A DNA stretch of 64,000 nucleotides from Eledone cirrhosa (Eukaryota), in contig OZ024742.1 in the NCBI GenBank assembly GCA_964016885.1, forward strand, positions 69,378,001 through 69,442,000, given 5' to 3'. The notes under the pieces were generated by a model, which did not search any database, had not been told where the DNA came from, and saw only the letters and a program-made list of their open reading frames with translations. This document shows positions 7,680-64,000 of this stretch, piece by piece (position 1 is the stretch's first letter; the number at the start of each line of letters is the position of its first letter). The position numbers and the translations under genes are program-made.

Positions 7680-7680
7680 G

Positions 7681-7767
<87 letters not shown>

Positions 7768-7781
7768 TTAATAATAATAAT
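7680..7781. repeat. (TAC)n-(TAA)n compound microsatellite; left edge of the retrotransposon array
   Basis: Direct reading. Confidence 0.95.
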
Positions 7782-10700
7782 ACTTTCTTTATTAACCACA
7801 AGGGTTGACACAAAATAGACATTAAGGACAGTACATGACGGTACAAATGGGTATTTCTGCGTGTAAAAAAAAAAGAACAGAGGATTTAACTAAAAAAGAA
7901 ACAATGAAAAATTCCCCAATAGGGGGGAGATTCCGAGGGACATTCGTGGAGAAAGCCCATTAAAGAAGCCACGGTGACCCTGACCACCAGGGCAAGTGCC
8001 CTCTCCCAGTTTTCCACCTTCAATTTACAGGAAAATACTCAGAGTAGGCCCATTCACACGGGCCATTCTTGCCTCTCTCACCCATCTTTCAACAAAATTC
8101 TGGGAAGAAAGCACTTCCCTCTCTACCCTGATTTTCCTTTTCAAATGAAATTTGAAAAAGTTAATCAGGCCATCACCTAAGAGGTAAGTGCTCGTCTTCA
8201 GCCCTTTCAAACGTGTCCATTATACTATCTCTTTCGCCATGGCCCCCAGACAGATAAAAACTGCACGCGACAGCAGGTGTTCGACATAAACCCACAAGTC
8301 AGCAATGCTCGGACACTGGACGAGTGCGTGCAGGACGGTTTCGTCGCCCTGCGCGCATCTCGGACATGCCCGGCTGACGGCACCTCCATGCCTGTAGAGT
8401 TTGTCCCGAACTGGCAAAGCTCCTCGGTAGGCCAGGGATTTCAGGAAATTGTCCATAGGCCCCGGCCCGAAAGTTCTTCCGAAGAGATTGGCTAGTTGAT
8501 TTTCGTCGACGCGTAGAGTTTCCCCAACTATGTCGTCGCTCTTCCCCTCCACCAATCCTCTATAGAACTCCAAAGTGGAGTCCACCGATCACATAGCCCG
8601 ATTGGTCGAGGGCTGTGAACGCCTGAAGACATTCCAGTCTCTAAGCGCTCTATCTCGGTCTTCGGTTGACCCGGGACTGCAGCTCCGTGAAGGAGACGAA
8701 CTGGGGAAAGACGCCTCTAGCAAACGGCGACCACACCTGATCACCGTCGAGGAAGAGGTGGAGATGTCGTAGCCTGAGCGCGTGTCTGCGCATCATCAGC
8801 CACGGCATTCCCAGCCCTCCACGTAGCGGGGGTTGACAGCAGATGGACCCCCTGACAATTGAAGCGCGTCCCTTAAACAAAATGCGAAATGCAAACGCTC
8901 CAGCGCAGTCAGGCGAAGCTTAGGACAAGACACGACGGTCAGGCGGTAGTAGATGACGGACGAGATGTACGCATTCGCCACCTCCGCTCGACCTTTCTCA
9001 TTTCTGGGTGAGAGAAGCCACTCTGCTCGTCAGCTCGTCCCAGTTTTTGTCCGTCTAGAGGTCCGGACCGAACCAGACGCCTAGTAATTTAACCGGTCCG
9101 TCCGTCCAGCGCCCGACGACGCTGTTGGACGGCATGGACATGCCTTTCCAGATGCCGAGCTGCAGGCCCACCGACTTTTCCTGGTTGATCATTGCTCCTG
9201 TCACCGCTTCGTATTCTCTTAGTGTAGTGACCATCGCCTCGATGTGTTTGGCGTTCGACACGACTAAGGTGACTTCGTCTGCATATGCTGACACGGATCT
9301 TCCGCATCCTAGTTTGCGCGGGACTCCCTCAACGTCTCCAGTTTGTGCAGTAATGGCTCGAGAGTCAATACGTACAAGAGGGACGAGAGGGGACTTCCTT
9401 GGCGGACCGAGCACATGATGTTGAACGGTTCCGAAAGGTGACCGTTCACTCTCACCACAGAGCAGATGTCGCTGTGCATGGCAGCGATCAAGCCTCTGAA
9501 GACGGGCCCGAAGCCAGCCGCCCTCAGGATTGCCGCCAGATAATGATAGTCGACCCTATCGAAAGTTTTCGATTGATCTAAATTGATCAAGGACCCACCC
9601 GTGCCAGGTTCCCTAGCTACCCTCTCCACGATGTATCGCATAAGATGGAGGTTGTCGTGGATGGATCTATCTGGAATGGCGCATGTCTGCGCCTCTCCCA
9701 CCAGACCACCAACGACAAGCGCCAACCTCTTTGGTAGCACCTTGGCCAAAATCTTGAACACTGTGTTTAGCAGAGTTATGGGCCTAAAATTATCTATGTT
9801 ATCCCCCTTATTCGGATCCTTTCTCAGCAGCACCACCGATTCTCGGCTCACAGAGCTGGGAATTCTCCCGTTCTGTTGCCAGTTGCAGTTGACGTCCGCC
9901 AAGAGGCCTCCGTCAAGTCTGGTATCTGTACGTAAAGTTTATAGGGCAGAGCATCTAAAACAGGCGATTTACAGCGGCTGTTATCGGATTTTCGCAACAC
10001 TCCGCCTCAGTGGCCGAGAGCCGCGGCAGTCCGTCGAGGTAGACACTAAAGTCCATCCCTCGATCCGGCCCGCCGCTGTGCCCGAACAACTGTGCGAAGT
10101 GTCGCTGAAAAGCTTCACACATTTGCCTGGGATCGAGTATCATGCGCCCGTCGTGGTCCACCAAAGACCGGATCGTGGCTTTGTTGCCACGACGCGCCTC
10201 CGCCACTCAGGCCCATTGAACGGCTTTCGTCCCCTCGTGTCTGAGAGCACGCACCCTAGCTCTGACAATGCAGCCTTCGTTCTTTGCATTGAAGTATTGG
10301 TCAAGGGCCAATTTCGCTGCAAGTACGTCGGTCGCGATGCCTTAGCTAAGCACTTCGTCTAATTCTCTAACTAGTTCTCCCTCTGCTCTATTTTTCTCTA
10401 TTGCTAAAGCCTTACTAAACCTAATGGTCTTTATTCTAATCGCTGTTTTCAGAGCAAACCACCACTTGTTGTTGACGATGGCCCTATCAACGCCCGCTTA
10501 ACTAGTTCGCTAATCCGGTCTTTTTATAGGCCTTGTGCGCTGGTAATGATGCCTTTAGCTTCCAGTAGCCGGGTCCTTGTCTATGAAGCCTATCTAAGTC
10601 AACTACACAGATCAGGAATTTGTGGTCCGTGTAGCTGACTATCTTGAATTGTGGACAGCCTATGCTAGACCTATCTATTTCCCTACAAAATACTCTATCT

Positions 10701-11333
10701 AGATATGATCTGGATGACCCGATACGGTTTGTCCAAGTCTACATTGGCAAATTCGGGAAATCGAATCGGTACCTGTCAGACAGCTCAAAACGCCTGAGCA
10801 GGTTGGTGAGGCTCTTGCACCCTCCTCCCCTATCTGCTAATCCCACAAAGTCACAGCGTGCATCTAAGATCCCGTTCCAGTTGCTCACTAACACTAAAGA
10901 GCGGGACGTTCCAAGAAAGGTCTCCAGATGCCGGAAGAAATCAGGTCGCCCTGCTCCTGTCGGGGCATAGACGGCCACTATCCTGAAAGCTTGTCCGTCT
11001 CCGCTGGTCACGTCCAGCACCACCAACTTACCTTCTGGGTCCAGGAAGATGGCCCGTATGGCAAGATCCAAACCTCTCCGAAAAAGCACAGCAACTCCAC
11101 CCTCTGATCCAGGACGGCTGGAAGATGCGTACACATCGTAGCCGCCGAAGATCGGTGCGAGGGCCCGTGCTTCAGAGATTCTGGTCTCGCTGATGGCCAC
11201 CACATCTATGTTTAGTGACCTGAATTCGTTGAGCAGGTGGCCCTGCTTCCATGACGAGCCCAAGCCACGCGAATTTATGCCGCCTATTCTGAGTGAGGTC
11301 GTGTTGAAAAGGAGTGCAAAAGATGGGAAAGAC
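7782..11333 (-). mobile_element. Tx1-like LINE family A, ORF2 + 3'UTR, degenerate
   Basis: APE (AISETR, VYAP), RT (FRPITLLN, LDQSK.FDRV, SAYADE), CPRC..H..C; 3' end aataaagaaagt abuts the (TAA)n tract; many frameshifts and deletions. Confidence 0.9.
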
Positions 11334-11334: not shown

Positions 11335-11573
11335 AAAATAACAATAATAATAATAACAACAACAACACCACCATCACCACTACAACTACTACTAACACCA
11401 CCACCATCACCACTACTACTACTAACACCGCCACCAACACCACTACTACTACTACAACAACAATAACAACAACAACTACTACTACGCCACCACCACACCA
11501 CCACTAGTACTACTACTACTACTACTACCATCACACCACCACTAGTACTACTACTACTAACACCACCACCACA

Positions 11574-11622
<49 letters not shown>

Positions 11623-11705
11623 TTACTGCTAACACCACCCCTACTACTGCTACTTCTAATACTACTAATAATACTACTACCACCACTACCACCACCACCA
11701 CCACC

Positions 11706-11742
<37 letters not shown>

Positions 11743-11794
11743 TTACTGCTAACACCACCACTACTACGACTACTGCTACTTCTAATACTACTAA

Positions 11795-11832
<38 letters not shown>

Positions 11833-11873
11833 TTACTGCTAACACCACCACCACCACCACCACCACCACCACT

Positions 11874-11956
<83 letters not shown>

Positions 11957-12630: not shown

Positions 12631-15600
12631 CCATTGAAAGGCTTTCGTCCCCTCGTGTCTGAGAGCACGCACCCTTGCTCTGACAACGCAGCCTTTGTGC
12701 TTTGCATTGAAGAATTGGTCAAGGGCCAATTTCGCCGCAAGTACGTCGGTCGCGATGCCTTTACTAAGCGCCTCTGCTCTATTTTTCTCTATTGCTAAAG
12801 CCTTACTAAACCTGATGGACTCTATTCTAATAGGTATTTTCAGAGAAAACCACCATTTGTTGTTGACGATGGCTCCCGTCAACACCCGCTTAACTAGATC
12901 ACTAATCCCGTCTCTGTAGGCCTTGCGCGCTGTTAATGACACGTTTAGCTTCCAGTAGCCGGGTTCCTGTCTATGGAACCTATCTAAGTCACAGATCACG
13001 AATTTGTGGTCCGTGTATATTGAAATGTGTACAGTCTATACTAGACCTATCTATTTCCCTGCAAGATACCCTATCTAGATATGATCTGGATGACCCGATG
13101 CGCTTTGTCCATGTCCACATTGGCATATGCGGGAAATCCAGATGGTACCTGTCAGACAGTTGAAACCCCATTCCGCTAATCCCGCACAGTCCCAGCGTGC
13201 ATCTAAGATCTCGTTCCATGTTCTATGCTCCTGTCAGGGCATAGACGGCCACTAGCCTCAAAGCTTGCCCGTCTCCGCTGGTCACGTCCAGCACCACCAA
13301 CTTACCTTCTGGGTCCAGGAAAATGACCCGTATGGCGAGATCCAAACCTCTCCGAAAAGCACAGCAACTCTTCCACCCGATCCAGGACGGCTGGGAGATG
13401 CGTACACATCGTAGCCGCCGAAGATCGATGCTAAGGCCCGTGCTTCGCAGATTTGGTCTCGCTGATGGCCACCACATCTATGTTTAGTGACCTGAGGTCG
13501 TTGGGCAGGTGGCCCTGCTTCCATGACGACCCCAGGCCACGCGCATTTATGCTGCCTATTCTGAGTGAGGTCGTGTTGAAAAGGAGTGGACAAAGATGAG
13601 AAAGATCACTTACCTCACTCCTCGTAGGGGAAGTTGGTTTTTACATCTTTCTCACCGCTCGTGGCCTCCTCCGGAAGGATGTCCTTATAAATCCTCCTGG
13701 AGAGTGTTTGTCGGAAGTCTCCGATGTCCTTGGGGAATTTTTGTTGCTAGTGTCGTGTAGGTTTTCTGTGTGATGCGAGTGATTTGTATGTGTGTGGGTA
13801 GTGTGAATTTTTGGGGTGTTGTGTAGGTTTTCTGTGATGCTGGTGTTGTGTTGGATGTATTGCAATAATTGGTTGTTGTTCAAATTTAATTGTTTCTACT
13901 TTTGGTACCAGGCCAGCAATTATCCCAGTGCATTACTGGTATTTTATTTTATCGACCCCGTAAGGATGAAAGTCAAAGTTAACCTCGGCAGGATTTGAAC
14001 TCAGATCATAAAGGGAGTTCATTCTATGCTTCAAAGCATGGAGCCCGACCGTCTACCGATACTGCCAATCCACCGGTTCAAATTTAATGCTGTTTAGTGT
14101 GTATCATTTTGGTTGTTTTGTTTTGTTTGCGTTTGTTGTGGGTTTGTTTCTGCTTCGCTTTTTGGTGACTTTGTGGTGTTGGTGATTATGGTATTGGGGT
14201 TAATGATGGTGATGGTGTTGGTGTTTGTGGTGATGGGGTTGGTGATGCTGGTGTGGATGGTAGCATAGCTGTCCTAACTTTTTTGTTTATTTGTTTATTT
14301 GTTTCCCCCTGCATTTTGTTTTTGGAGAGCGAAGGAAGAGGATTTTTTCTTTTTGGGGTTCTCTTTCTTTTTTTCTTTTTTCCTGATACAGTTTCCCACT
14401 CCTCGTCGTCACAATCTGTCTCCAGTTGCGATATGTAGGGGAGTGGAAAAACCTCCACGGGCGTTGGTTTTGGTTGTGGCGTGGTGGATGGTGATGGCGC
14501 TGGTGCTAATTCTGGCGCGGTGGGTTGTGGTAGTGTTGGTTTTGCTACTGTTGCTGGGGTTGTTGCTGCTACAGTTGTTTTGTTGTCGCTAGTACAGTTG
14601 TTGCTGCCATTTCTGCTGCTGGTTGTGTTGATGGTTGAGTCACTGAGGTGGGTAAGAGAGGTGGCCTCAACTTTTTAGCATGAGGGCAGAAAGCCTTTAG
14701 GTGGGTTCCTTCACCACAGACGACACACCTTCTACCCTCGACGATTACGGTGAGGTGGCCGCCGTCAGTGAGGTCTATCACTACTGGAATTTCCTCAATG
14801 TTTTTTTGGTCAGCTTGGATCAGGGACTCCATCTTAAAACCGGACCAGTTCTCCTGCTTTTCTTTTGTTACTTCAATTATTTTCGTGTTTGCCTCGATGC
14901 CGGCGAGCACGACAGCCATTAGCCAGGGAATTTCGATGGCCGGTGGAACGTGGGTCACCCTGATCTTCACGAGTCTCTGACCACAATAGCTTGGGACGAG
15001 TGTGAAGTCGTCACTTCTTAATGGGGCCATGGAGTGCTTTCTGGCTTCCTGTGGTGTTCCAAAGAACACGTCCACAGTTCCATATTTCTGCCTACGTCTG
15101 ATGTGGGTATTTCTTGCTCACACATGTCCCAAAGCTTTTTCTATCTGGGACTCGGATGCCTGTTCCACTCGGTGTGATTTTGTGTTTATTGTCCGATATG
15201 ACACGGTGCATAGGCGCCGACGCTCCATTTTAAAAGATGGCGGGGTTAGGCTGACCCTGTACCCATCTTTTTTTACCATTCTCTTGGCTTCATTTAATTC
15301 TTCCTGGCTTACCTTGATTGTTTCGCTTTTCTTGGCTGCTTTGGCAAACGACACATTTTGTTTCTGTTGTCGCTGTGGTGGTGGTGTAGGTGACGGCTTT
15401 AACACCTGTAGTTATTGGTAATGGCGGGAAATGAATGCCTGCATGAGACAAATTTAAATTATTGCCACTGCTAATATTTTTAGTGTTGGCAACTGTAGTA
15501 ATATTTACAATGGTGGTGTTGGTGTAAGGTGTTAGTTTGTGAGGAAGGCTGTCGGCTTCGTGTGGCTGTGAGGCGTCCATGTGTTTTTCAAAGAGAATTT

Positions 15601-15768
15601 TTGTTTGATAATTATAAAAGTTTAAATTTTGGGCTCAAGGCCCCAATCTTTTTGAGTGTCCTTTTCAGAAAGCAATATATGTGAACTTATAAACACTAAA
15701 TAACAAACATTTTCCATAACTGGCAATTTGAAACAACTGAAAACAACAAACCTTTGCGGAGCTGACGA
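12631..15768 (-). mobile_element. Tx1-like LINE family A, 5'UTR + ORF1 + APE part of ORF2, 3' end lost
   Basis: Matches 32232-35540 in reverse; ORF1 zinc knuckle CVVCGEGTHLKAFC; GYWKLN; lacks the first ~25 nt. Confidence 0.9.
13891..14075 (-). mobile_element. tRNA-derived SINE inserted in Tx1 ORF1
   Basis: Full-length family sequence; 13-bp TSD gttcaaatttaat at 13878-13890 and 14076-14088. Confidence 0.92.
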
Positions 15769-15793
15769 TAATAATAATAATAATAATAATAAT

Positions 15794-18485
15794 GAAAGAA
15801 TCTGACATGGGGCAACGAGACACCCTCCCTAAGATCCAGAACTCCAAACAGAACCAAAAGATAATACACAAGACTAACATAATTCTCAAAAACATTATCA
15901 TCACAAACAAACTAAACATTACTGATTTAAATCATCTCTATTATGCATCGGCTAAAGTCACCACTCACTTATGTGGAGTGAAGATGAAAAAACAAAGGAA
16001 TTCCCACAAGAAATCTACTTGGCAAGAGAACATCAATCGCCAAATAAACATTCTCCGATCTAACATGGAAATTTTAACAAACTATAAAGTAGGTGAACAT
16101 GTTAAACAAACTAAACTTAGAAAATTGAAAAGAAAGTACAGTATAAAATCAACAAGTGACATAGACATGCTGATAGAAATAATCAAGCAAAAAGTGTCGG
16201 CCAAAGCTGCTCGTATAAGGCGCTTTGAAAAACGATCTAGATTCTATAAGGACAATAATATGTTCAAAAACAACCAAAGAAACTTCTACAGAAAAATTGG
16301 TAAGTCAACAATAACTGCTAAATCAATACCACCCAAGGAGGAAGTGCAAGAATTCTGGGAAAAGATCTGGGCTAAGAAAAAGTTCATAACATACATGCCC
16401 CATGGATAGACAGACAAATGAAAGATACAGCTCACCTTGAGGAACAAATATGGGAAAATATAACAGTTGAACAGTTGCGCTTGGCTCTAAGAAAAACCAG
16501 CAAATGGAAATCCCCAGGAAAAGACAAAATACAAAACTTTTGGATAAATGCCTTCACAGAGTCTCATGAGCTGTTAGCCCAACTTTACAATGAAATAGTT
16601 AAGGAGCCAGAAAAGATACCATCATGGCTAGTTAACGGCATTACATTCCTGCTTCCGAAGAATGATGAGACAAACAATCCCCAAAATTACAGACCGATAA
16701 CTTGCTTGACCACAATGTATAAAATTTTAACATCTGTCCTAACTGAATACACATATGACCACCTGATAACAAATGATCTATTTCCTATTGAGCAGAAAGG
16801 GTGTAAATGAGGCTCATATGGCTGTAAGGATCAGCTTTTGGTTAACAAAATGATACTGGAAGATTGTCATAATAGACACAAAAATCTATCGATTGCTTGG
16901 ATAGATTATAAAAAAGCATTCGATAGTTTGCCACACAGTTGGATTGAAACATGTTTAGAGATTTTCAAAATATCCCCCGTTGTCAGGAGGTTTTTGTCAT
17001 TCAGTATGAAGACATGGAAAACGACACTCCTTTTGAATAGTGAAACAAAATCACTGGAAGCTGGAGAAGTTAATATTAATTGTGGAATTTTTCAGGGTGA
17101 CTCTTTATCACCGCTTTTATTCTGCATCGCACTTATACCATTAAGTAAAATGCTCAATGAAACAAAACATGGATATAAAGTCTATGACAAAACCATTAAT
17201 CACTTGTTCTACATGGATGACCTGAAACTATTTGCAAAAAATGATGAACAATTGCAAGGGCTATTATCCACTGTGGAGCAGTTCAGTGATGACATTAAAA
17301 TGGAGTTTGGACTAGATAAATGCGCCAAAGCAACGTTGAAAACTGCAACAATTGGATTATCTACATATTTAAGGGAATCACATGATTGGATGATCAAACT
17401 CGTTTTGAAACACGAAAGCATCAGAAGATCATATTCCATTACAAAAGATGCACAAAGATACAGTAATGGACTACAAATTTCAGAAGTCCCATTTACTGCT
17501 GAAATGGAAAACACAGAAAAGGCAAAGCAGGTAAAAGTAACTGCAAAGAAAGAACTGCTACAGAAACTGGCTAAGAAATGGCAAGAAAAGCCTCTGTATG
17601 GAAAATACCCAGAGCGAGCTAACAATCCTGATGTTGACAAAACTTTAACCAATCAGTGGTTGGCATCCTCTGGACTGAAATCGGAGACTGAAGGACTGAT
17701 TATATCAGCACAAGATCAGTGTCTGCCAACAAAAAATTACCAAGCCAACATAATAAAAAATGGATGCAGCCCATTATGCCGTGTATGCAAAAAACAACCA
17801 GAGACCATTGACCATATAATTTCAATGTGCAGTCCTATAGCTCCAACCGAATACCTAAACAAGCATGACAGAGCTGCACAATACATACATTGGATAATGT
17901 GTAAGCATTTTGACCTGTCCCATCAAAAGAATTGGTGGGAGCATCAACCACCTCCCATACTTGAAAAAGACCACATCTCAATCTTGTGGAACTTTAGCAT
18001 CCAAACAGACCGAAAAATAGATGCAAATAGACCTGATATAATATTGAAGGACTTTAAAAAGAGGGTATGCCTGCTAATTGATATGTCTGTACCAATAGAC
18101 AAGAATGTATCTATAAAAACATTTGAAAAATTGAGCAAGTATAAGGATCTGGAGATAGAAATTGGAAAAATGTGGAAATTGAGAACTAAAACAATACCAG
18201 TGGTTGTAGGCGCTCTGGGAATGATACCTAAGGGGCTAATGATTACTTATCGCAAATCCCAGGAAACCCGCGTATAGGAGAAATACAAAAGATAGTACTA
18301 ATGGGAACTGCCCATATACTAAGGAAGATTCTGTCAATATAAGTACATCACAAGTCTAAACACTAAAGATGCATGTGTGAGTATGTATGTTCTTTCTTGA
18401 ACATGGCGGACCTTGTTGTCTCTTGAGGTCACTGGTTGTGACTTGGTGATAACTCGTATGAACATAAAGCAAGATAAATGCAACT

Positions 18486-18486
<1 letters not shown>
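15794..18486 (+). mobile_element. R4/Dong-like LINE family A (RT + CCHC + RLE), 5'-truncated, disrupted
   Basis: YRPITCL, FQGDSLSP, FYMDD, CRVC..ETIDHIISMC, (R/K)HD, RPDII..D..EK; (TAA)n on both sides; frameshifts ~16400 and ~18235, stop 16808-16810, in-frame deletion at ~17335. Confidence 0.92.
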
Positions 18487-18516
<30 letters not shown>

Positions 18517-19363
18517 GGAGGAAGAGCAGCCTTAAGGGAAAATCCCTTCATAGTACCTTCTTTGAGAAAACTGAATTTAGAGATCCACAGACATGGAACT
18601 GGTTGAGAAGAGGAGACATCAAAAAGGCTACAGAAGGAATGCTAATGGCTGCGCAGGAGCAGGCCCTCAAAACGAAGTGGTTGAAGCACCATATTTACAA
18701 GGAGGAGGCTAGCCCACTGTGCAGGATCTGTGGAGAGAGAGAGGAGACTGGCTCACATTGTATCCGAGTGTAAACACCTAGCCCAGACCCACTATAAGGG
18801 CTGGAGACATGATGTGATGGGTAGGTTGATCCACTGGCACCTGTGCAAAGTAAACAATTTACCACATTCTGAGAAATGGTATGAGCATAGGCCAGAGGCG
18901 GTGATGGAGAACGATCAGGTGAAGGTGCTGTGGGATTTTAGGATACAGACGGACAAAAAACTGGAACACAATAGACCTGACCTGGTGGTTGTGGATAAAG
19001 AAAAAAGAGCGTGTCTGATTGTGGATGTGGCCTGCCCATTCGACACGAGAGTGCAAGAGAAGGAGAGGGAGAAAATTAACCGATACCAGGACCTAAAGTG
19101 GGAGGTAAAAAGGATTTGGAACTGCCATGAAGTCAAAGTGATCCCGATTGTCATAGGCGCACTGGGGACTATCTCCAAAAGTTTCCAGGGATGGTTAAAG
19201 AAAATCGGCCCCTTCACGCTTTTTGGAACGCTTCAAAAGGCATGCTTGCTGGGAACAGCAAGAGCCCTCCGATACGTCCTGAATATCTGAGGCTGCAGGT
19301 AGTGGCTTGATATTCATTCCAACGGACTTTCCAGTTAACCAACATCAATGACTGAGATTCAAG

Positions 19364-19364
<1 letters not shown>
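18517..19364 (+). mobile_element. R4/Dong-like LINE family B, 3' fragment
   Basis: HIVSEC, RHD, RPDLVVVD..VDVACP..EK and 3'UTR; (TAA)n on both sides. Confidence 0.92.
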
Positions 19365-19430
<66 letters not shown>

Positions 19431-19436
<6 letters not shown>

Positions 19437-22048: not shown

Positions 22049-22075
22049 AATAACAATAACAATAATAATAATAAT

Positions 22076-23494: not shown

Positions 23495-23940
23495 GGTCAG
23501 AAGCAACGGAATCCGTGTACCAACGGGTGTGATGATAAAAGAGATCGACACCGAAGAGAGATACAGGTATTTGTATGTTCTGGAAGTAGATGGCATCAAG
23601 AACAATAAAACGAAGGAGGTGATAACATCTGAATAGGAGAGTAAGGAACATACTAAAATCACATCTAAATAGTAGGAATGTCATAAGTGCAATAAATTCC
23701 CGAGCCGTGTCTATTATTAGGTACAGTGTGGGAATTCTCAAATGGAATGTTACTGAACAAAAAGAAATGGATAGAAAGACTAGGAAGATAATGACTACCG
23801 GCAGCATGTTCCACAAGAGGAGTGATGTTGATAGACTCTACTTAAAGAGATCTGAAGTAGGAAGAAGTCTTATCAGCGTAGAGGACTGTGTTCAGATGGA
23901 GAAGAGCAGTCTACACAAATATGTGTCTGAGTGTAAGGAG
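23495..23940 (+). mobile_element. Dong-like family B-related internal fragment (diverged)
   Basis: SIIRYSVGILKWNVTEQKEMDRKTRK..HKRSDVDRLYL, homologous to ~20690-21130. Confidence 0.85.
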
Positions 23941-25208: not shown

Positions 25209-25220
25209 AAAAAAAAAAAA

Positions 25221-26015: not shown

Positions 26016-26016
26016 G

Positions 26017-26762: not shown

Positions 26763-26764
26763 GA

Positions 26765-27102
26765 CAGTAGTGAAGATCGACCTGCTGCCTTCTTTTGGAT
26801 GGGAAGGGTAGACAGTTTTTCTGTCTGGTGGCGATAGCGAAAGAAGTTGTGTGGTGGACTGAAGAGAAGGAGATGGGTGCCCTCCTCGTGTACCCTCGAA
26901 GCGTCGGGTGGTTCAGGATTGGTGGGATACCCGAATCGCTCGAGTGTGGTTCTCCCCTCTATTGGGGAATTTATTTTGCTATATATTTATTCTTAATTGT
27001 TTTTGTTAATTTGTTTTTTATACGTTGTATATGTAAACTCCCGCTGTGCTTGTCTTTGTATTGTCCCCCCTATATCGGGCCTTTTGGCCAATGAACGAAA
27101 CG
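26765..27102 (+). mobile_element. Old Tx1-like 3' end fragment
   Basis: FCLVAIAKEVVWWT; UTR hairpin cccctctattgggga; ends ccttttggccaatgaacgaaacg + (ATT)n. Confidence 0.75.
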
Positions 27103-27133
27103 ATTATTATTATCATTATTATTATTATGAAGG

Positions 27134-47556: not shown

Positions 47557-47567
47557 ATTATTATTAT

Positions 47568-49387: not shown

Positions 49388-49470
49388 ACCCACATCGTAC
49401 CGTCCTGTACCGTCCTCTGCCGTCTGTAATGTTTTTCTTGATGTCAGCCCTTCTGGCCAATCAAGAAATC
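49388..49470 (+). mobile_element. Tx1-B terminal 3'UTR fragment
   Basis: Matches 47473-47556; followed by (ATT)n. Confidence 0.85.
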
Positions 49471-49488
49471 ATTATTATTATTATTATT

Positions 49489-52400: not shown

Positions 52401-54924
52401 TCAGAGCTAGAGCGCGTGCTCTGAAACATGAAGGGACAAAAGCCGTCCAATGGGCCCGGGTGGCAGAGGCGCGACGTGGCAACAAAGCCACAATTCGGTC
52501 TTTGTCTGACCAAAACGGGTGCGTGATGCTCGAACCCGAGCGGATGTGTGAAGCTTTTCAGCAGCACTTTGCTGAAATGTTCGGGAGAAGCGGCGGTCTG
52601 GATCAGGGCATGGACTTCAGTGCATACCTCAACGGACTGCCTCGGCTTTCGAGGACCGTAGCACAGTGTTGCGAAAAGACAATAACAGCCGGTGAAATAC
52701 GGGAAGCGAGGGCTAGCTGCACAAGGGGTAAATCGCCAGGTTTGGATGGTCTGCCCTACGAGCTTTATGCATTTATGCCAGACTTGTTAGGTGACCTCTT
52801 GGCAGACGTCTACTGCAACTGGCAGCAGAATGGGAGCATTCCCAGTTTTGTGAGCCGGGGAGCGGTGGCGCTGCTGAGAAAAGACCGAACAAGGGGGATG
52901 TTATCGATAATTTCAGGCCCATAACCTTGCTAAGCGAACAATTCAAGATTTTGGCGAAGGTGTTAGCAACGAGGTTAGCGCTTGTCGTCAAGCGTCTGGT
53001 CGGAGAGGCACAAACATGCGCCATTCCGGACAGATCCATACACGACAACCTCCTCCTCATGCGATACATCATAGAGAGGGTGGTTAAGGAACCTGGCACG
53101 GGTGGGGCCCTGAACAATATGGATCAATCCAAAGCATTCGATAGGGTCGACCATCGGTCCCTGGCGGCGGTCCTCGAGGCAGCCGGTTTCGGGCCCGTTT
53201 TCAGGGGTTGTATCGCAGCGATGTACCGCAACATCTGCTCAGTTGTGAGGGTGAACGGTCACCTGTCGCAGCCGTTCAACATCATGCACTCAGTCTGCCA
53301 GGATTGTCCCCTCTCGCCCCTCTTGTACGTATTGGCTCTCGATCCGTTACTGCACAAACTGGGTGCGACGAGGGGCGTCCCACGCGAACTAGGATGCGAG
53401 AAATCCGAGTCGGCTTGCGCCGACGACGTCACCCTTCTTATGTAGAGCACCAGACACATCCAGATGCTCGGCACCGCTCTCAAGGAATACGAAGCGGTGA
53501 CAGGAGCAAAGATATACCAGGAAAAGTCGGTGGTCTTGCAGCTGGGCACCTGGAGAGGCAAGTCCATGCCGTCCGACAGCGCCGTGGGGCGTTGGACGGA
53601 CGGACCGGTTAAATTGCTCAGGGTCTGGTCGGACCGGACCTCTAGATGGAGAAAAACTGGAACGAGGTGACGAGCAAGGTGGCCTCACTCACCCAGAAAT
53701 GGGCCGAAAGGAAGCTGTCCCTGAAAGGCCGGGTGAAGGTGGCGAATTCGTACATCGCATCCGTCATCTGCTACCGCCTCACCGTCGTCCCTTGCTCCGA
53801 CCCAACTCTCACCAAAATGGAGCGCCTCCTCTTCCGCTTTTTGTGGAAGGGACGCGCTCCCATGGTCAGACAATCCATCTGCTGTCAACACCCGTTGCGT
53901 GGAGGACTGGACATGCCATGGCTGATGATGCGCAAACATATGCTGAGGCTGCGACATCTCTGGTGCTTCCTTGACCGTGAACAGGTGTGGTCGCCGTTAG
54001 CCAGGCACGTTTTCCCACAGCTCGTCTCCTTGACGGAGCTGCAATCCTGGGTCAGGAAAACACCGAGGAATAGCGCTTGGAAACTGGAATGTCTCCAGGC
54101 GCTCACTGCCCTCTGCCAGCTGGGCACCAGTATCGGTGGAACATCCACCTCAGCGTTCTATAGAGGACTAGTGGAGGGGAAGTACGACGACGTTCTCAGA
54201 GAGATCTTGGGCGTCGAAGAAGATCAGCTGTTTGCTCTCTTCCGGTGAACTTTCAGCCCGGGGCCTATGGATAACTTCCAAAAATCCCTGGCCTGGGAGT
54301 ACTACCGGGGTGCGTTGACGGTTCGCGATAAGCTCTACAGGCACGGAAGTGCCGTCAGCCGAGCCTGTCCGAGATGCGCGCTGAACGACGAAACCGTCGT
54401 GCACGCACTGGTTCAGTGCCCGAGCATTACTGACTTGTGGAGCTATGTCGAACAGTTGCTGTCGCGTGTAGAACTGATCCGGTTTTTCGACTGAGTCCAT
54501 TGTGCAAATGGTTTCGCCGTCTTCCTTCGAGGAGGAAGGGCAGGCGGTTTTCATCTGCCTGGTGGCCATGGGGAAAGAGATTGTGTGGTGGACAAGGTTG
54601 AAAGGCTTAAAGACAGACAGTTTCCTCTTCGGTGAATACCTAATCAACTTTTTCAAGTTTCACTTGAAGAGGAAAATTAGGGTGGAGAGGCAAGTGCTTC
54701 TAGCAAGTTTGTTGAAAGGTGTGTGAATGTAGCGAGAATGGTCAGAGTGAACGGGACTGCTCTGAATATACGTCTGTAGTTTGAGAAATGGAAAAATTTT
54801 GTGAGGGCGCTTGCTCTGCTGGTCAGGATGGCCGTGGTCTTTTGTGTGGTTTTCGCCACTAGTAACCCTCGGAGGTATCCTCCCTATTGGGGAATTTTTC
54901 ATTGTTTCAATTTTCATTTTTATT

Positions 54925-54969
<45 letters not shown>

Positions 54970-55108
54970 TCTATATTTTTTTTTATATTTTTATATAAAT
55001 AATAAAAATCTCTACACACACAAAACCATCATCGTACCGCCCTGTACCGTCCTGTGCCATCTGTAATGTTTTTTCTTGATGTCAGCCCTTGTGGCCAATA
55101 AAGAAATC
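49489..55108 (+). mobile_element. Tx1-like LINE family B, near full length, inactivated
   Basis: ORF1 with CYLCGSKGHLRIFC (49834-50811, homologous to family A ORF1), ORF2 from ATG 51365 (MAVLRISSINARGL) to ~54779, 3'UTR + (ATT)n. Confidence 0.93.
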
Positions 55109-55132
55109 ATTATTATTATTATTATTATTATT

Positions 55133-55920
55133 TGCATTTATCTTGCTTTATGTTCATACGAGTTATCACCAAGTCACAACCAGTGACCTCAAGAGACAAC
55201 AAGGTCCGCCATGTTCAAGAAAGAACATACATATTCACACATGCATCCTTAGTGTTTAGACTTGTGATGTACTTATATTGACAGAATCTTCCTTAGTATA
55301 TGGGCAGTTCCCATTAGTACTATCTTTTGTATTTCTCCTATACGCGGGTTTCCTGGGATTTGCGATAAGTAGTCGTTAGACCCCTTAGGTATCATTCCCA
55401 GAGCGCCTACAACCACTGGTATTGTTTTAGTTCTCAATTTCCACATTTTTCCAATTTCTATCTCCAGGTCCTTATACTTGCTCAATTTTTCAAATGTTTT
55501 TATAGATACATTCTTGTCTATTGGAACGGACATATCAATTAGCAGGCATACCCTCCTTTGAAAGTCCTTCAATATTATATCAGGTCTGTTTGCATCTATT
55601 TTTCGGTCTGTTTGGATGCTAAAGTTCCACAAGATTGAGATGTGATCTTTTTCAAGTATGGGAGGTGGTTGATGTTCCCACCAATTCTTTTGATGGGGCA
55701 GGTCAAAATGCTTACACATTATCCAATGTATGTATTGTGCAGCTCTGTCATGCCTGTTTAGGTATTCGGTTGGAGCTATAGGACTGCACATTGAAATTAT
55801 ATGGTCAATGGTCTCTGGTTGTTTTTTGCAAACACGGCATAATGGGCTGCACCCATTTTTTATTATGTTGGCTTGGTAATTTTTTGTTGGCAGACACTGA
55901 TCTTGTGCGGATATAATCAG
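55133..55920 (-). mobile_element. R4/Dong-like LINE family A, 3' fragment with intact RLE
   Basis: ORF 55273-55791 RHD, RPDII, EK..Y.DL, HILRKILSI; (TTA)n on both sides. Confidence 0.92.
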
Positions 55921-55927
55921 TTATTAA

Positions 55928-55976
<49 letters not shown>

Positions 55977-58900
55977 GGCGACCTACGTAGTAAATCGTAT
56001 TATCGTGAGCTCCGCAAAAGTTTGTTATTCTCAGTTGTTTAAAATTGCCATTTATGGAAAATCTTTATTGTTAATTGTATATAAGTGCACATACATTGTT
56101 TTCTGAAAAGGACACTCAAAAAGATTGGGGCCTTGAGCCCAAAATTTAAACTTTTATAATTATCAAACAAAGATTTTTCTTTGAAAATTCATGGACGATC
56201 AGTGTAACACCTTCCTCACAAACTAACACCTCACACCGACACCACCATTGTAAATATTACTACGTTTGCCAACACTAAAAATATAAGCAGTAGCAATATT
56301 TTTAATTTGTCTCAGGCAGACATTCATTTCCCGCCATTACCAATGACGGGAGGTGTTAAAGCCGCCACCCCCACCACCACCACAGCGACAACAGAAACAA
56401 AAGAAAAAATAAATTAACTCGTGATATCGAAATGAATTCAACCAAAATGAACTCTTCCACACCGAACACCACTGACGCCACCACCACCACAACTGAAACT
56501 AAAATTAACAATAACAAAAATAACGATAACAACAACAACAACAACAATGAAATTAAGAAAACCACCCTGAGTTTTGCCAGAGTAGCGAAACAGTGCGAAG
56601 TATTTCAGGTAACTCAGGAGGAATTAGAAGAAGCCAAAACAATGGTAAAGAAAGATGGGTACAGGGTCAGCCCCCCCCCCTAAATAAAATGGAGCATCGG
56701 CGCCTATGCACCGTGTCTTATCGAACAAGTAACATAAAATCGCGCCGAGTGGAACGGGAATCCGAGTCCCAAATCCAAAAAGCTTGGGGACATGTGTGGG
56801 AAAAAAAACCCACATCAGACGTGGGCAGAAATATGGAACCGTGGACGTGTTCTTTGAAACACCACAGGAGGAAAAATCATGGCCCCATTAAGAAGTGACG
56901 ACTTCACACTCGTCCCAAGCTATTGTGGCCAGAGACTCGTAAAGATCAGGGTGACCAACGTTCCACCGGCCATCGAAATTCCCTGGCTAATAGCTGCCGT
57001 CCTCGCCGGCATCGAAGCCAACACCAAGATAATCGAAATAGCGAAAGAAAAGCAGGAGAACTGGTCCAGATCTGGGATGGAGCTCCTGATCCAAGCGGAC
57101 CAAAAAAGCATTGAGGAGATCCCAGAGGTAATAGACCTCACTGACGGCAGCCACCTCACGGTAATTGTCGAGGGCAGAAGACCTAGGTGTGTCGTTTGTG
57201 GTGAAGGAACCCACATAAGGGCTTTCTGCCCTCAGGCTAAAAGGTTGAAGCCACCTCTCTTACCCATCACAGTGACTCAACCATCAACACCACCAGCAGC
57301 AGAGATGGTAGCAACAACTGTAGCAGCAAGAACAGAAGCAACTGTAACAGCAACAACCCCAGCAACAGTAGCAAAACCAACACCATCACCACCCAACGCG
57401 CCAGAACTAGCACCAGCGCCTACACCATCTACCACGACACAACCAAAGCCAACGCCTGTGGAGGATTTTACACTCCCCGGCCTATCACAACTGGAGACAG
57501 ATTGTGACGACGAGGAGTGGGAAACGGTATCAGGAAAAAAAAAAAGAAACCAAAAGAGAAAAAAATTCTCTTCCCTCCCCCTCCAAAAACAAAATACAGA
57601 AGGAAACAAATAAACTATCAAACAAAAAAGTTAGGACAAATATGCCACCATCCACACCAGCATCACCAACCCCATCACCACAAACACCAACACCATCACC
57701 ATCATTAACCACAAACCACCATCACCAACACCACAAAAGTCACCAAAAAGCGAAACAGAAACAAACCCACAACAAACGCAAACAAAACAAAACAACCAAA
57801 ACGATACACACTACACAGCATTAAATTTGAATAACAACTAATTATTACACTACATCCAACACAAAACCAGCATCAGAGAAAAGGACTACACAACAACCGA
57901 AAAGTTCACACACCTCCACACATACAAATCACTCGCATCACACAGAAAACGTACACGACACTAAAACAAAAATTCCCCAAAGACATCGGAGACTTCCGAC
58001 AAGCACTCTCCAGGAGGATTTATAAGGACATCCTTCCTGAGGAGGCCACAAGCAGTGAAAAGGATGGAGAAACCATCCTTCCTCTACGAGTAGTAAGGTA
58101 AGTGGTCTTTCCCATCTTTTCCACTCCATTTCAACATGACCTCACTCAGAATAGGCAGTATAAATGCGCGTGGCTTGGGGTCGTCATGGAAGCAGGGCCA
58201 CCTGCTCAACGACCTCAGGTAACTAAACATAGATCTAGTGGCCATCAGCGAGACCAGAATCTCCGAAGCACGGGCCTTCGCACCGATCTTCGGCGGCTAC
58301 GATGTGTACGCATCTCCCAGCCGTCCTGGATCGGCGGGAGGATGTGCTTTTCCGGAGAGGTTTGGATCTCGCCATACGGGCCATCTTCCTGGACCCAGAA
58401 GGTAAGTTGGTGGTGCTGGACGTGATCAGCGGAGACGGGCAAGCTTTCAGGCTAGTGGCCGTCTATGCCCCGAGAGGAGCAGGGCGGCCTGATTTATTCC
58501 GGCGTCTGGAGACCTTTCTTGGAACGTCCCGCTCTTTAGTGTTAGTGGGCGACTGGAACGGGATCTTAGATGCACGCTGGGACTGTGTGGGAGTAGCGGA
58601 TAGGGGAGGAGGGTGCAAGAGCCTCACCAGCCTGCTCAGGCGTTTTGAACTGTCTGACAGGTACCGATTGGATTTCCCGAACGTGCCAATGTGGATTTGG
58701 ACAAATCGCATACGGTCAACCAGATCATATCTAGATAGAGTATTTTGTAGGGAAATAGATAGGTCTAACATAGACTGTCCACAATACAAGATAGTCAGCT
58801 ACACGGACCACAAATTCGTGATCTGTGTGCTTGACTTAGATAGCCTTCATAGACGAGGACTCGGCTACTGGAAGTTAAACGCGTCCTTACCAGCGCGCAA

Positions 58901-61771
58901 GGCCTACAGAGACCCGATTAGCGAACTAGTTAAGCGGGCGTTGACGGGGCCATCGTCAACAAGAAGTGGTGGTTTGCTCTGAAAAGAGCGATTAGAATAG
59001 AGTCCATTAGATTTATTAAGGCTTTAGCAATAGAGAAAAATAGAGCAGAGGGAGAATTAGTTAGAAAATTAGACGAAGCGCTTAGCAAAGACATCGCAAC
59101 CGAGGTACTTGCGGCGAAATTGGCCCTTGACCATTTCTTCAATGCAAAGCACGAAGGCTGCGTTGTCAGAGCTAGGGTGCGTGCTCTCAGACACGAGGGG
59201 ACGAAAGCCGTTCAATGGGCCCTAGTGGCGGAGGCGCGTCATGGCAACAGAGCCACAATCCGGTCTTTGGTGGACCACGACGGGCGCATGCTACTCGATC
59301 CCGGGCTAAATGTGTGAAGCTTTCCAGCGACACTTCGCCCAGCTGTTCGGGGGCAGCGGCGGGACGAATCGAGGGATGGACTTTAGTGTCTGCCTCGACG
59401 GACTGCCGCGGCTCTCGGCCACTGAGGCGGAGTGTTGCGAAAAGCCGATGAAGTACGGGAGGCAATGACTGGCTGCACAAGGGGTAAATCGCCTGGTTTG
59501 GATGGTCTGCCCCGTATGAACTTTACGTACAGATGCCAGACTTTTTTGGAGGCCTCCTGGCTGACGTCTACTGTAACTGGCACCAGAACGGGAGAATTCC
59601 TAGCTCTGTGACCCGAGGGGATGTGGAGCTGCTGAGAAAGGATCCGAACAAGGGGGATAACATAGATAATTTCATGCCCATAACTCTGCTAAACACAGAG
59701 TTCAAGATTTTGGCCAAGGTGCTAGCAAAGAGGTTGGCGCTTGTCGTTGGTGGTCTAGTGAAAGGGGCGCAGACGTGCGCCATTCCCGACAGATCCATCC
59801 ACGACAGCCTCCACCTCATGCGATACATCGTAGAGAGGGTAGCTAGGGAACCTGGCACGGGTGGGTCCTTGATCAATTTAGATCAGTCGAAAGCTTTCGA
59901 TAGGGTCGTCTAGCGTTATCTGGCGGCAATCCTGAGGGCGGCTGGCTTTGGGCCCGTCTTCAGAGGCTGGATCGCTGCTATGCACAGCGACATCTGCTCT
60001 GTGGTGAGAGTGAACGGTCACCTTTCGGAACCGTTCAACATTATGCGCTCGGTCCGCCAAGGATGTCCCCTCTCGTCCCTCTTGTACGTATTGACTCTCG
60101 AGCCATTACTGCACAAACTGGAGAAGTTGAGGGGAATCCCGCGCGAACAAGGATGCGGAAGATTCGTGTCAGCATATGTGGACGATGTCACCGTAGTGGT
60201 GAGCGAACGCCAAACACATCGAGGCGATCGGCACTACACTAAGAGAATACGAAGCGGTGACAGGAGCAAGGATCAACCAGGAAAAGTCAGTGGGCCTGCA
60301 TCTCGGCACCTGGAGAGGCAGGTCCATGCCGTCCAACAGGGTCGTGGGGTGCTGGACGGACAGTCGTGTAAATTGCTAGGGGTCTGGTTCGGTCCGGACC
60401 TCAGACGGGCAAAAACTGGGACGAGGTGACGAGCAGGGTGGCTTCTCTCACCCAGAAATGGGCGGAGAGGAAGCTATCCCTGAAAGGTCGAGCGGAGGTG
60501 GTTAACGCGTACATCGCGTCCGTCATCTACTACGTTGCCCTAAGCCCCGCCTGACCGTCATACCTTGTCCTAAGCCCCGCCTGACTGCGCTGGAGCGTTT
60601 GTTCTTTCGTTTTTTGTGGAAAGGCCGCGCTTCGATGGTCAGGCGGTCTATCTGCGGTCAACACCCGCTACGTGGAGGGCTGGGCATGCCGTGGCTGATG
60701 ATGCGCAGACACGGGCTCAGGCTACGTCATCTCCACCTCCTCCTTGACGGTGATCAGGTGGTGTCGCCGTTTGCTAGACACGTCTTTCCCCAGCTCGTCT
60801 CCTCTAGGGAGCTGCAGTCCTGGGTCAAGCGAAGACCGAGAGGGAGCGCTTGCAGACTGGAATATCTTCAGGCGCTCACAGCCCTCGACCAATCGGGCAA
60901 TGTGATCGGTGTAAACACCACCTTGGCGTTCTATAGAGGATTAGTGGAGGGGAAGAGCGACGACGTACTTGGAGAAACTCTAGGCGTCGAAGAACTTTCG
61001 GGCCGGGGCCTGTGGACAACTTCCACACATCCCTGGCCTGGCAGTGCTACCGAGGAGCTGTGCCAGTTCGGGATAAAATCTACAGGCATGGAGGTGCCGT
61101 CAGTTGGACATGTCCGAGATGCGCGCAGGGCGACGAAACCGTCCTGCACGCACTCGTCCAGTGTCCGAGCATTGCTGACTTGTGGGCTTATGTCGAACAC
61201 CTGCTGTCGCGTGTAGGACGGAGCCAGCTATCAGCTGAGTCCATCGTGAGGATTGCCCCGCTCACTTCCTTTAGCCGGGAAGGGCAGGCAGTTTTTATCT
61301 GTCTGGTGGCCATGGCGAAAAAGATAGTATGGTGGACACGTTTGAAAGGGCTGAAGACGAGCACTTACCTCTTCGGTGATGCCCTGATTAACTTTTTCAA
61401 ATTTCATTTGAAAAGGAAAATCAGGGTAGAGAGGGAAGTGATCTCTTCCCAGCATTTTGTTGAAAGGTGGGTGAGAGAAGCAAGTATGGTCCGAGTGAAT
61501 GGGCCTACTCTGAGTATGTGTATGTAAATTAAAGGTAGAAAACTGGGAGAGGAACTTGCCCTGGTGATCAGGGTCACTGTGGCCTTTTAATGGGCTTCTC
61601 CACAAATGTCCCTCGGAAGTCTCCCCCCTATTGGGGCATTTTTCATTGTTTCTATTTTTGTTACATCCTCTGTTTTTTTTACACGCAGAAATGCCCATTT
61701 GTACCTCCTCTATTGTCCTATACTGTCCTTAATGTCTACTTTATGTAAACCCTTGTGGTTACTAAAGAAAA

Positions 61772-61772
<1 letters not shown>
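55977..61772 (+). mobile_element. Tx1-like LINE family A, full length, inactivated
   Basis: Colinear with 32232-38106; many frameshifts and stops; (TTA)n flanks. Confidence 0.95.
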
Positions 61773-61823
<51 letters not shown>

Positions 61824-64000
61824 GGCGACCTACGTAGTAAATCGTATCATCGTGAGCTCCGCAAAGGTTTGTTATTTCCGTTTGTTAAAAATTGTCATTT
61901 ATGGAAAATTTTATTGGTAACTTTTTATAAGCGCACATACATTGTTTTCCGAAAAGGACACCCAAAAAGATTGGGGCCTTGTGCCCAAAATTTAAACTTT
62001 TATTATTATCAAAAAAAAATTTTTTTGAAAAAAATGGCTAATTCACCTCTGCACGAAGCAGCTGAAAGCCTTCCTCACAAATTAACACCTCACACCGACA
62101 CCACCATTGTAAATGTTACTACGTTTGCCAACACAAAAAAAAATATAAGCACTAGCAATATTTTAAATTTGTCTCAGGCAGACATTCATTTCCCGCCATT
62201 ACCAATGACTGCAGGTGTTAAAGCCTCCACCACCACCACCACCGCGACAACCACCACCATCACCACCACCACCACCCCGACAACAGAAACAAAAGAAGAA
62301 AAAATAAATTAACTCGTGATGTCGAAATGAAATCAAGCAAAATGGACTCTTCCCCACCAAAGACGACTGACGTCACCACCAACACAACTGAAACTAAAAT
62401 TAACACAAATAACGATAGCAACAACAACAACAATGACATTATAAAAACCCCCCTCAGTTTTGCCAGAGTAGCAAAACAGTTCGAAGCATTTACAGTAACA
62501 CAGGAGGATTTAGAAAATGCCAAACAAATGGTAAAGAAAGATGGGTACAGGGTCAGCCCCCCCACCTAATAAAATGGAGCATCAGCGCCTGTGCACCGTG
62601 TCGTATAGAACAATAAATGTAAAATCGCGCCGAGTGGAACGGGCATCCGAGTCCCAAACCCAAAAAGCTTTGGGACATGTGTGGGCAAGAAAAACCCACA
62701 TCAGACGTGGGCAAAAGTATGGAACCGTGGACGTGTTCTTTGAAACACCAGAGGAGGCTAGAGAACACTCCATGGCCCCATTAAGAAGTGACGACTTCAC
62801 ACTCGTCCCAAGCTATTGTGGCCAGAGACTCGTAAAGATCAGGGTGACCCACGTTCCACCTGCCATCGAAATTCCCTGGCTAATAGCGGCTGTCCTCGCC
62901 GGCATCGAAGCCAACACGAAAATAATAGCAATAGCAAAAGAAAAGCAGGAGAACTGGTCCGGATCTGGGATGGAGCTCCTGATCCAAGCGGACCAAAAAA
63001 GCATTGAGGAGATCCCAGAGATAATAGACCTCACTGACGGCAGCCACCTCACGGTAATTGTCGAGGGCAGAAGACCTAGGTGTGTCGTTTGTGGTGAAGG
63101 AACCCACCTAAGGGCTTTCTGCCCTCAGGCTAAAAGGTTGAGGCCACCTCTCCTACCCACCCCAGTGACACAACCATCAACACCACCAGTAGCAGAGATG
63201 GCAGCAACAACTGTAGCAGCAACAACAGAAGCAACTATAACAGCAACAACCCAAGCAACAGTAGCAAAACCAACACCACCACCACCACCAGCAAAACCAA
63301 CACCACCACCACCCAACGCTTCAGAACTAGCACCAGCGCCTACACCATCCAGCATGCCACAACCAAAACTAACGCCTGTGGAGGATTTTCCACTCCCCGG
63401 CCTATCACACCTGGAGACAGATTGTGACGACGAGGAGTGGGAAACGATATCCGGAAAAAAAAAAGAAACCAAAAAAGAAAAAAATTCTCTTCTTTCCCCC
63501 TCCAAAAACAAAATACAGAAGGAAACAAATAAACTATCAAACAAAAAAGTTAGGACAGATATGCCACCATCCACACCAGCATCACCAACCCCATCAACCC
63601 AAACACCAACACCATCACCATCATTAACCCCAACACCACCATCACCTACACCACAAAAGTCACCAAAATGCGAAACAGAAACAAACCCACAACAAACGCA
63701 AACAAAACAAAACAACCAAAACGATACACACTACACAGCATTAAATTTGAACAACAGGCAATTATTACACTACATCCAACACAACACCAGCATCACAGAA
63801 AAAGACTACACAACAACCCCAAAATTCACACCACCTCCACACATACAAATCACTCGCATCACACAGAAAACGTACATGACACTAAAACAAAAATTCCCCA
63901 AAGACATCGGAGACTTCCGACAAGCACTCTCCAGGAGGATTTATAAGGACATCCTTCCTGAGGAGGCCACAAGCAGTGAAAAGGATGGAAAAACCGTCCT
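61824..64000 (+). mobile_element. Tx1-like LINE family A, 5'UTR + ORF1 (runs off window)
   Basis: Starts GGCGACC after (ATT)n 61773-61823; very similar to 32232-34390. Confidence 0.95.

Follow-up and report, generated by a model that had tools for sequence, protein, structure and literature searches.

The window analysed here is a stretch of 64,000 nucleotides of Eledone cirrhosa DNA (assembly GCA_964016885.1, contig OZ024742.1, positions 69,378,001 to 69,442,000 of the forward strand), part of a 379-Mb contig in an assembly of 3.0 Gb. From 7.7 to 64 kb it is occupied by an array of two types of long interspersed elements (LINEs), namely 13 segments of a type with an apurinic/apyrimidinic-like endonuclease (APE), called Tx here, and 11 of a type with a restriction-like endonuclease (RLE), called Dong, together with four pieces of a short interspersed element (SINE). 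The array extends 10.6 kb beyond the window, to about 74.6 kb. Most segments are linked by (TAA)n tracts, and all neighbouring Tx/Dong pairs are antiparallel. Similar Tx/Dong arrays are present at many other genomic loci, and the window is a large example of a common structure, not one special to its locus. Our analysis supports the view that the repeat is the target of both types, which probably enter it from opposite strands.

Segments were typed by mapping against unchanged natural copies, complemented by tract, self-alignment and motif scans. The resulting numbers agree with those of a preliminary description of this DNA (about 13 Tx1-like and about 11 R4/Dong-like segments); the eight junction tracts that it named all have the places and orientations given there, and the A-run that it reported at 25208 is real. 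From 7680 on, 20 tracts of at least four units are found, against 0 to 1 per shuffle in 20 dinucleotide shuffles. At least seven joints are without a tract (23489/23498, 23941, 26030, 28690, 39495, 43263 and 49386). The array reads as follows, in window coordinates:

7681 to 7782: (CTA)18, then (TAA)n of about 16 units; left border of the array, which probably belonged to the seed microsatellite.
7784 to 11333, minus strand: 3' part of TxA with an internal deletion, 5'-truncated at an imperfect tract (11337 to 11360).
11366 to 11956: CAC/ACT low-complexity array of 590 nt between two TxA pieces.
12631 to 15773, minus strand: 5' part of TxA with open reading frame 1 (ORF1) and APE, its first ~21 nt and its 3' end missing.
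13891 to 14075, minus strand: SINE inside TxA, with a short target duplication starting ATTA.
15768 to 15793: (TAA)n tract, Tx and Dong head-to-head.
15791 to 18486, plus strand: Dong-A, 5'-truncated, with an internal deletion of ~410 nt, 98.7 to 98.8% identical to an intact natural copy.
18487 to 18516: (TAA)10 between two Dong copies.
18506 to 19365, plus strand: Dong-B, 5'-truncated.
19365 to 19432: (AAT)22 between two Dong-B copies.
19430 to 22049, plus strand: Dong-B, 5'-truncated, with an open frame carrying reverse transcriptase (RT), CCHC, RHD and PD motifs.
22050 to 22075: tract, Dong-B and TxB tail-to-tail.
22076 to 23489, minus strand: 3' part of TxB, its 5' break without a tract.
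23498 to 25210, plus strand: Dong-B piece (to 23941) fused to a 3' part of Dong-A that ends in the A-run.
25221 to 26030, plus strand: older Dong-like N-terminal fragment, a weak match and the weakest Dong segment (tblastn 37% over 49 amino acids, E 4e-6).
26030 to 26766, minus strand, and 26768 to 27100, plus strand: two old Tx3-like pieces head-to-head, a polarity switch at a joint without a tract.
27103 to 27422, plus strand: (ATT)n, SINE (27134 to 27318), (ATT)6, repeated SINE 3' part, (ATT)6.
27425 to 32016, plus strand: TxB piece to 28691, its truncated 5' side preceded by ATT, joined to a TxA that retains its 3' end.
32021 to 32231: tract, 148-nt Dong-A 3' end on the minus strand (32050 to 32197), tract; a 5'-truncated Dong with the repeat on both sides.
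32232 to 38106, plus strand: full-length TxA1 with 5' untranslated region (UTR), ORF1, and ORF2 with APE, RT and zf-RVT; frames broken.
38107 to 38151: (ATT)15, TxA and Dong-B tail-to-tail.
38154 to 43116, minus strand: two Dong-B copies, fused to each other at 39495; the second has most of the 5' UTR and starts at a tract (43117 to 43128).
43263 to 47557, plus strand: TxB, behind the 5' half of a SINE (43137 to 43224).
47557 to 49488: tract, Dong-B on the minus strand (47568 to 49386), second copy of the last ~85 to 100 nt of TxB with (ATT)6.
49501 to 55108, plus strand: TxB, 5'-truncated.
55109 to 55976: tract, 5'-truncated Dong-A on the minus strand (55132 to 55921), tract.
55977 to 61772, plus strand: full-length TxA1.
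61773 to 64000, plus strand: (ATT)17, then a TxA1 that continues to 67161, outside the window.

TxA consists of an ORF1 followed by an ORF2 of 1,139 amino acids with the Pfam domains Exo_endo_phos, RVT_1 and zf-RVT. The upstream ORF1 measures 531 to 713 codons, and in TxA it gives only a sub-threshold match to MBD. The nearest solved relative of TxA is L1 ORF2p (E 2e-52; R2 follows at E 1e-20), and by their architecture Tx elements are APE-type LINEs of the L1 group. TxB and Tx3 are 73 to 80% relatives of TxA, which itself comes with two unrelated 5' UTR/ORF1 halves (TxA1 and TxA2) on an ORF2 that is about 95% identical. The target preference of TxA1, seen at 93% of its 5' ends, compares with a criterion of more than 20% of flanks for the Tx1 clade (PMC4494074). 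Similarity, atlas and cluster look-ups returned no named Tx1 sequence among the relatives, and the RT tree contained no named references; the name Tx1 is a tentative one, based on architecture, target specificity and sequence motifs. Behind the matches to distant Tx relatives in metagenomes (23 to 46% identity), an ATT/TAA run of at least 14 nt was found at 0 of 80 loci, many of these contigs ending early; one such relative ends in (ATC)n.

Dong-A has a single intact ORF of 1,064 amino acids, in which the RT is followed by CCHC, RH(D/N) and PD-type endonuclease motifs, and gives no APE match. The solved structures related to it are R2 proteins only, and the Dong elements are RLE-type LINEs. 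RT identity is 47% between Dong-A and Dong-B, and 25 to 26% between Tx and Dong; in the RT tree the two Dong families group with different foreign relatives. The copies lie in (TAA)n and read TAA on their sense strand, as described for R4/Dong elements (PMC3774820, PMC3812793). Among the 120 matches listed there is no named R4 or Dong protein, and the R4/Dong affiliation is tentatively suggested by architecture, target and sequence motifs. Contigs of 1.2 to 2.6 kb about 99% identical to Dong-A (window 15803 to 18474) were also seen in runs labelled as two other organisms.

Is the repeat a target, or merely a tail? Genome-wide, ends were counted with exact patterns (a similarity search with a 107-nt Tx 3' end gave nothing, common words being skipped), which yielded 1,642 5' ends for TxA1 and 1,154 for Dong, and 9,671, 4,099 and 10,057 3' ends for TxA, Dong-A and Dong-B, respectively. 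The motif ATTATTATT directly precedes 1,532 of the 1,642 TxA1 5' ends. Junctions were further tallied in a sample of 250 loci merged into 126 stretches (1.0 Mb), from which the two stretches beside the window are omitted unless stated and pieces under 45 to 50 nt were dropped. In this sample, ATT stands before all 46 full-length Tx 5' ends, and 51 of 70 truncated Dong 5' ends follow TAA, none ATT. Full-length Dong copies with both ends in view are few (4 TAA, 1 ATT, 1 none); among loci centred on Dong 5' ends and read by eye, a TAA tract lies ahead of 28 of 30 full-length copies. At the 3' side, Dong runs into TAA in 114 of 118 cases and Tx into ATT in 94 of 107, with no reversed case. Solitary copies, which amount to 16 of 92 for Tx and 10 of 69 for Dong, occur besides the arrays. 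Coverage in 40 evenly spaced stretches of 10 kb is 6.8% for Tx, 1.0% for Dong and 1.8% for the SINE, and 6 of 12 tracts of at least 15 nt abut one of the three.

Among sample neighbours (elements within 200 nt), Dong-Tx pairs are antiparallel in 94 of 95 cases, whereas Dong-Dong and Tx-Tx pairs are parallel in 47 of 50 and 28 of 30. Genome-wide patterns with gaps of 10 to 40 nt give 573 antiparallel junctions (563 with Dong-B 3' facing TxA 3', 10 with Dong 5' facing TxA1 5') against 0 parallel ones: neither Dong-B 3' followed by TxA1 5' nor TxA 3' followed by Dong 5' occurs, where random orientation, scaled by end counts, predicts about 96 and about 59. The antiparallel rule proposed for the window thus extends to the genome. 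An assembly artefact, that is, misjoins at microsatellites, might be suspected, as no record in four runs, whose reads are cut at repeats, spans a 4.4-kb stretch (14900 to 19300). Misjoins, however, are blind to element orientation and would not produce 563 and 10 against 0 and 0; moreover, the same pattern is found on several chromosomes as well as in an unselected stretch, and the copies differ from one another. We consider an artefact next to negligible as an explanation.

Several observations weigh against a strictly site-specific, polarised insertion. Truncated Tx 5' ends (n = 47) show ATT in 17 cases, TAA in 1 and no tract in 29, which weakens strict specificity, although some of the 29 have imperfect ATT, ACT or TTC repeats or later disruptions; the remaining 19 of the 70 truncated Dong 5' ends are also without a tract. 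One Dong-Tx pair of the sample is parallel. Polarity switches, as it does in the window, in 9 of the 94 stretches with at least two elements (a count that includes a stretch beside the window), and in a few Dong 5' junction tracts (TAA)n turns into (ATT)n, a fold-back that might give rise to the opposite polarity. Finally, the sample favours young copies, since its loci are mostly exact-motif matches from the first 45 to 95 Mb of contig 1. The tract-less truncated Tx copies, most of which have a long 3' tract, are also what would be expected if the repeats were tails made by the elements themselves, the arrays arising by landing in such tails, by tandem duplication or by recombination; tract-less fusions in the window do testify to recombination or deletion. 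Yet 35 of 44 Dong-Tx head-to-head junctions carry tracts, and no tail can lie there. Truncation points differ among copies, and identities range from 76 to 99%, which likewise speaks against this reading. Tract-less copies also show no ordinary short duplication in the unique flanks around element plus tail; longer duplicated flanks occur at two of 20 such copies for Dong and one of 29 for Tx. We therefore judge tails or recombination very improbable as the source of the pattern, and the data support the repeat being the target, not only a tail. Contrary findings named in the preliminary description, such as frequent parallel Tx/Dong neighbours, were looked for and did not appear, and its claim that two LINE lineages target one repeat holds up genome-wide.

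Within the window, the switch falls at the tract-less head-to-head joint 26766/26768: left of 26767, TAA is on the plus strand and Tx on the minus strand, and to the right ATT and Tx are both on the plus strand. The window consequently comprises two blocks of opposite polarity rather than one, so that the inherited polarity proposed for the array holds locally only, as the 9 switching stretches of the sample also indicate. Twin priming was considered as a cause of the switch and rejected, since the element coordinates of the two Tx pieces overlap and their likeness is only ~72%. A short hairpin lies nearby in an old Tx piece (26101 to 26165). As to the order of events, identity over 83 Dong-Tx pairs is higher for Dong in 21, higher for Tx in 9 and within 5 points in 53; this suggests that insertions took place in both orders, the measure being weak because single natural copies served as yardsticks.

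How could two unrelated enzymes share one repeat in opposite directions? We hold it probable, with good confidence, that nicks on opposite strands combined with pairing of repeat RNA explain the pattern. Tx and Dong would each insert in (TAA/ATT)n by target-primed reverse transcription (TPRT) from opposite DNA strands. Tx junctions have the form ATT|element|ATT, which points to a priming nick by the Tx APE at a T-A step of the (AAT)n strand; cleavage at such steps is reported for the TRAS1 endonuclease (PMC7265360) and the human L1 endonuclease (PMC13295347). For Dong, both the RLE nick and priming would be on the (TTA)n strand, opposite to the one used by Tx. Poly(A) is found at 0 of 105 Tx 3' ends, despite an AATAAA just upstream, and single-nucleotide polymorphism types of Dong-B subfamilies travel with their own CAA-interrupted, repeat-like tail variants; the RNA therefore probably carries repeat units by which it pairs with the primer. 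Each RNA would end in a few read-through units, whose pairing with the nicked strand would reinforce orientation and leave no poly(A). A target duplication of about 13 to 21 nt, not visible where the repeat is pure, would provide a pad on either side; later Tx, Dong and SINE copies would stack in one polarity until deletion, inversion or a seed nearby interrupts it. One Tx copy in an imperfect tract has a clear duplication of 17 nt starting ATTA; the other 11 Tx cases flagged by script are mostly pure repeat plus one base. ORFs are intact in some copies of both types, which may still be active.

Alternatively, pairing alone might set orientation. The endonucleases would nick either strand, but priming by a Tx RNA with an (AUU)n end would be confined to the AAT strand and that by a Dong RNA with a (UAA)n end to the TTA strand, polarity being a frozen accident of the founding copies. 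The missing poly(A) and the inherited Dong-B tails fit this scheme, as do rare off-target Tx copies with only ATTA(T) at the 3' junction, and pairing of a repeat-like RNA with the nicked strand has been proposed for SART1 (PMC7265360). SINE duplications in unique DNA, however, start at the ATTA register, and Tx 5' junctions keep one register (that of Dong is looser); this constancy fits a sequence-specific nick. Furthermore, Dong of B. mori is oriented alike with respect to the TAA strand (PMC3774820), and swapping endonucleases swaps the specificity of TRAS and SART (PMC7265360). We thus regard pairing alone as unlikely, and retain the combination of opposite-strand nicks and pairing. Off-target flanks were seen to keep polarity, with Dong 5' ends by (GAA)n, Tx 5' ends by (TTC)n and a single Tx within (ACT)n. 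A duplicated ~100-nt piece of the neighbouring Tx 3' end flanks one Dong-B copy of the window (47462 to 47568 and 49386 to 49488), possibly an unusually long target duplication; a Tx 3' piece of ~220 nt, duplicated in the same way, lies on both sides of a Dong-B copy near 29.463 Mb of contig 1.

The SINE takes part in the arrays. In the sample it is parallel to Tx in 21 of 22 cases and antiparallel to Dong in 18 of 19, and 7 of 34 SINEs have target duplications of 13 to 21 nt starting ATTA: it uses the same repeat site, with a specificity relaxed to ATTA. SINE-Tx 3' similarity is weak, being reached by 7 to 14 of 1000 shuffles for Tx3 and TxB and by 123 of 1000 for TxA1; the SINE is likely Tx-driven. 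It presumably resembles octopus SINEs. At the same TxA ORF1 position (about nt 1891), a SINE is inserted in two copies (window 13891 to 14075, and contig 1 near 37.12 Mb), and another lies in a TxA 5' UTR, which may reflect hot spots or else inheritance of an insertion. SINE-3'-like stretches followed by a few ATT units are present in a TxA1 5' UTR (window 32385 to 32417) and in a Dong-A-type 5' UTR (42617 to 42712). Outside the array, a MITE-like inverted repeat of 378 nt, near-perfect (97%), lies at window 4412 to 4789.

A further question concerns the 5' ends. The first ~370 nt of Dong-A and Dong-B are 77% identical, against 47% in the RT, and the families have different foreign relatives in the tree, which leads us to infer that the Dong 5' end moved between families. 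The first 240 nt of both Dongs align with Tx 5' ends, the likeness residing in the first ~220 nt. Among 480 to 564 GC-matched genomic windows, the global score is reached by 0 for TxA1 and TxA2, 0 to 1 for Tx3 and 0 to 5 for TxB, and shuffles agree. The module comprises a G start, a GCTC..GTAAG box at +25 to +40, a CAAATATT box, and an A-run plus ATGG. The last, at +206 to +221 in all six Tx and Dong 5' ends, is the ORF1 start in Tx and opens no more than a short frame in Dong. A 15-nt box in a Tx3 subfamily is identical to that of Dong (12 of its 15 letters were in the query and a near-match had been seen beforehand). Full-length Tx and Dong 5' ends all start with G (for instance at window 32232 to 32470), and most have a GTAAG(T)-like motif 35 to 50 nt downstream that resembles a splice donor/U1 site or a downstream promoter box. 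No Rfam ribozyme family was found at E of at most 1 in four loci with full-length 5' ends, where only low-scoring, repeat-driven matches appeared, and our own descriptor of ribozymes akin to that of hepatitis delta virus (HDV), which had no positive control, gave 0 matches. Dong may have replaced an ancestral ribozyme 5' end with a putative promoter module of ~220 nt captured from Tx, which also moved between Dong families; we advance this sequence-based idea tentatively. The chief rival reading is that the two types converged on host promoter motifs in AT-rich DNA. With such a capture, and held just as cautiously, goes the picture of a guild of three members, an APE LINE, an RLE LINE and a SINE, that 'farms' one microsatellite on opposite strands.

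The microsatellite would thereby be a renewable landing pad for two unrelated enzymes on opposite strands. The scale is considerable, with Tx plus Dong at ~8% of the unselected 400-kb sample and each family at ~10,000 3' ends. Both types have intact copies; these allow a direct test of whether the endonuclease or RNA-primer pairing fixes TPRT orientation, and provide a candidate ATT-specific APE and a candidate TAA-specific RLE for targeted-insertion work. If the 5' module is indeed a captured promoter, it would represent a route by which an RLE element leaves ribozyme-dependent co-transcription.

Dong-R4 and L1-Tx1 elements are abundant in octopus (PMC13282606, PMC8967140). In the literature covered, of which Repbase and subscription journals were not part, we found neither an ATT-specific Tx1 nor co-targeting by Tx1 and Dong, nor a shared 5' UTR. 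Known chemistry accounts well for the arrays. The combination on a dispersed microsatellite, with a SINE and possibly a shared 5' module, looks undescribed, but its principles have published precedents: convergence of APE and RLE in Keno/Utopia, and opposite orientation in TRAS/SART.

Dong targets TAA microsatellites (PMC3812793, which also covers Kibi, Koshi, Waldo and Mino), and microsatellite-targeting Tx1 elements are described in PMC4494074, as the preliminary description had stated for both. Our Dong elements share with those of the R4 clade (B. mori Dong, DongAg, DongBg) the TAA target, the single ORF, the RT and the C-terminal RLE. B. mori Dong has a self-cleaving HDV-like ribozyme at its 5' end, and (TAA)n on the sense strand at its 5' junction (PMC3774820); here, by contrast, there are two deeply split families (47% in the RT) with thousands of copies, no HDV-like ribozyme was found in the searches above, and the 5' end resembles the local Tx 5' UTR. 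Simple repeats are targeted by the Tx1 elements Kibi (TC), Koshi (TTC), crocodilian elements (TTCC/TTTC) and Tx1-1_ACar (telomere repeat) (PMC4494074, PMC10088271). Like these, Tx is an APE-type LINE with two ORFs, specific for a simple repeat; unlike them, its target is (ATT)n, which is not among the published targets compared, and is shared with an RLE element. The pair SINEU/Tx1-Mar, where SINE and Tx1 lineage prefer the same target (PMC4494074), parallels the SINE found here, which differs in its relaxed specificity (ATTA) and weak 3' similarity to Tx.

Two known pairs come closest. Keno (Tx1, APE) and Utopia (RLE) share a site in a U2 small nuclear RNA gene (PMC4640811), but they have identical 3' flanks, hence the same orientation, in a low-copy gene, whereas Tx and Dong occupy opposite strands of a renewable microsatellite and form large interleaved arrays. 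TRAS and SART, two LINE families of B. mori, enter a single repeat, (TTAGG)n, in opposite directions and make up arrays there (PMC7265360, PMC10088271); both, however, are telomeric APE elements of the R1 clade, while the arrays described here bring together two endonuclease classes at dispersed interstitial tracts.

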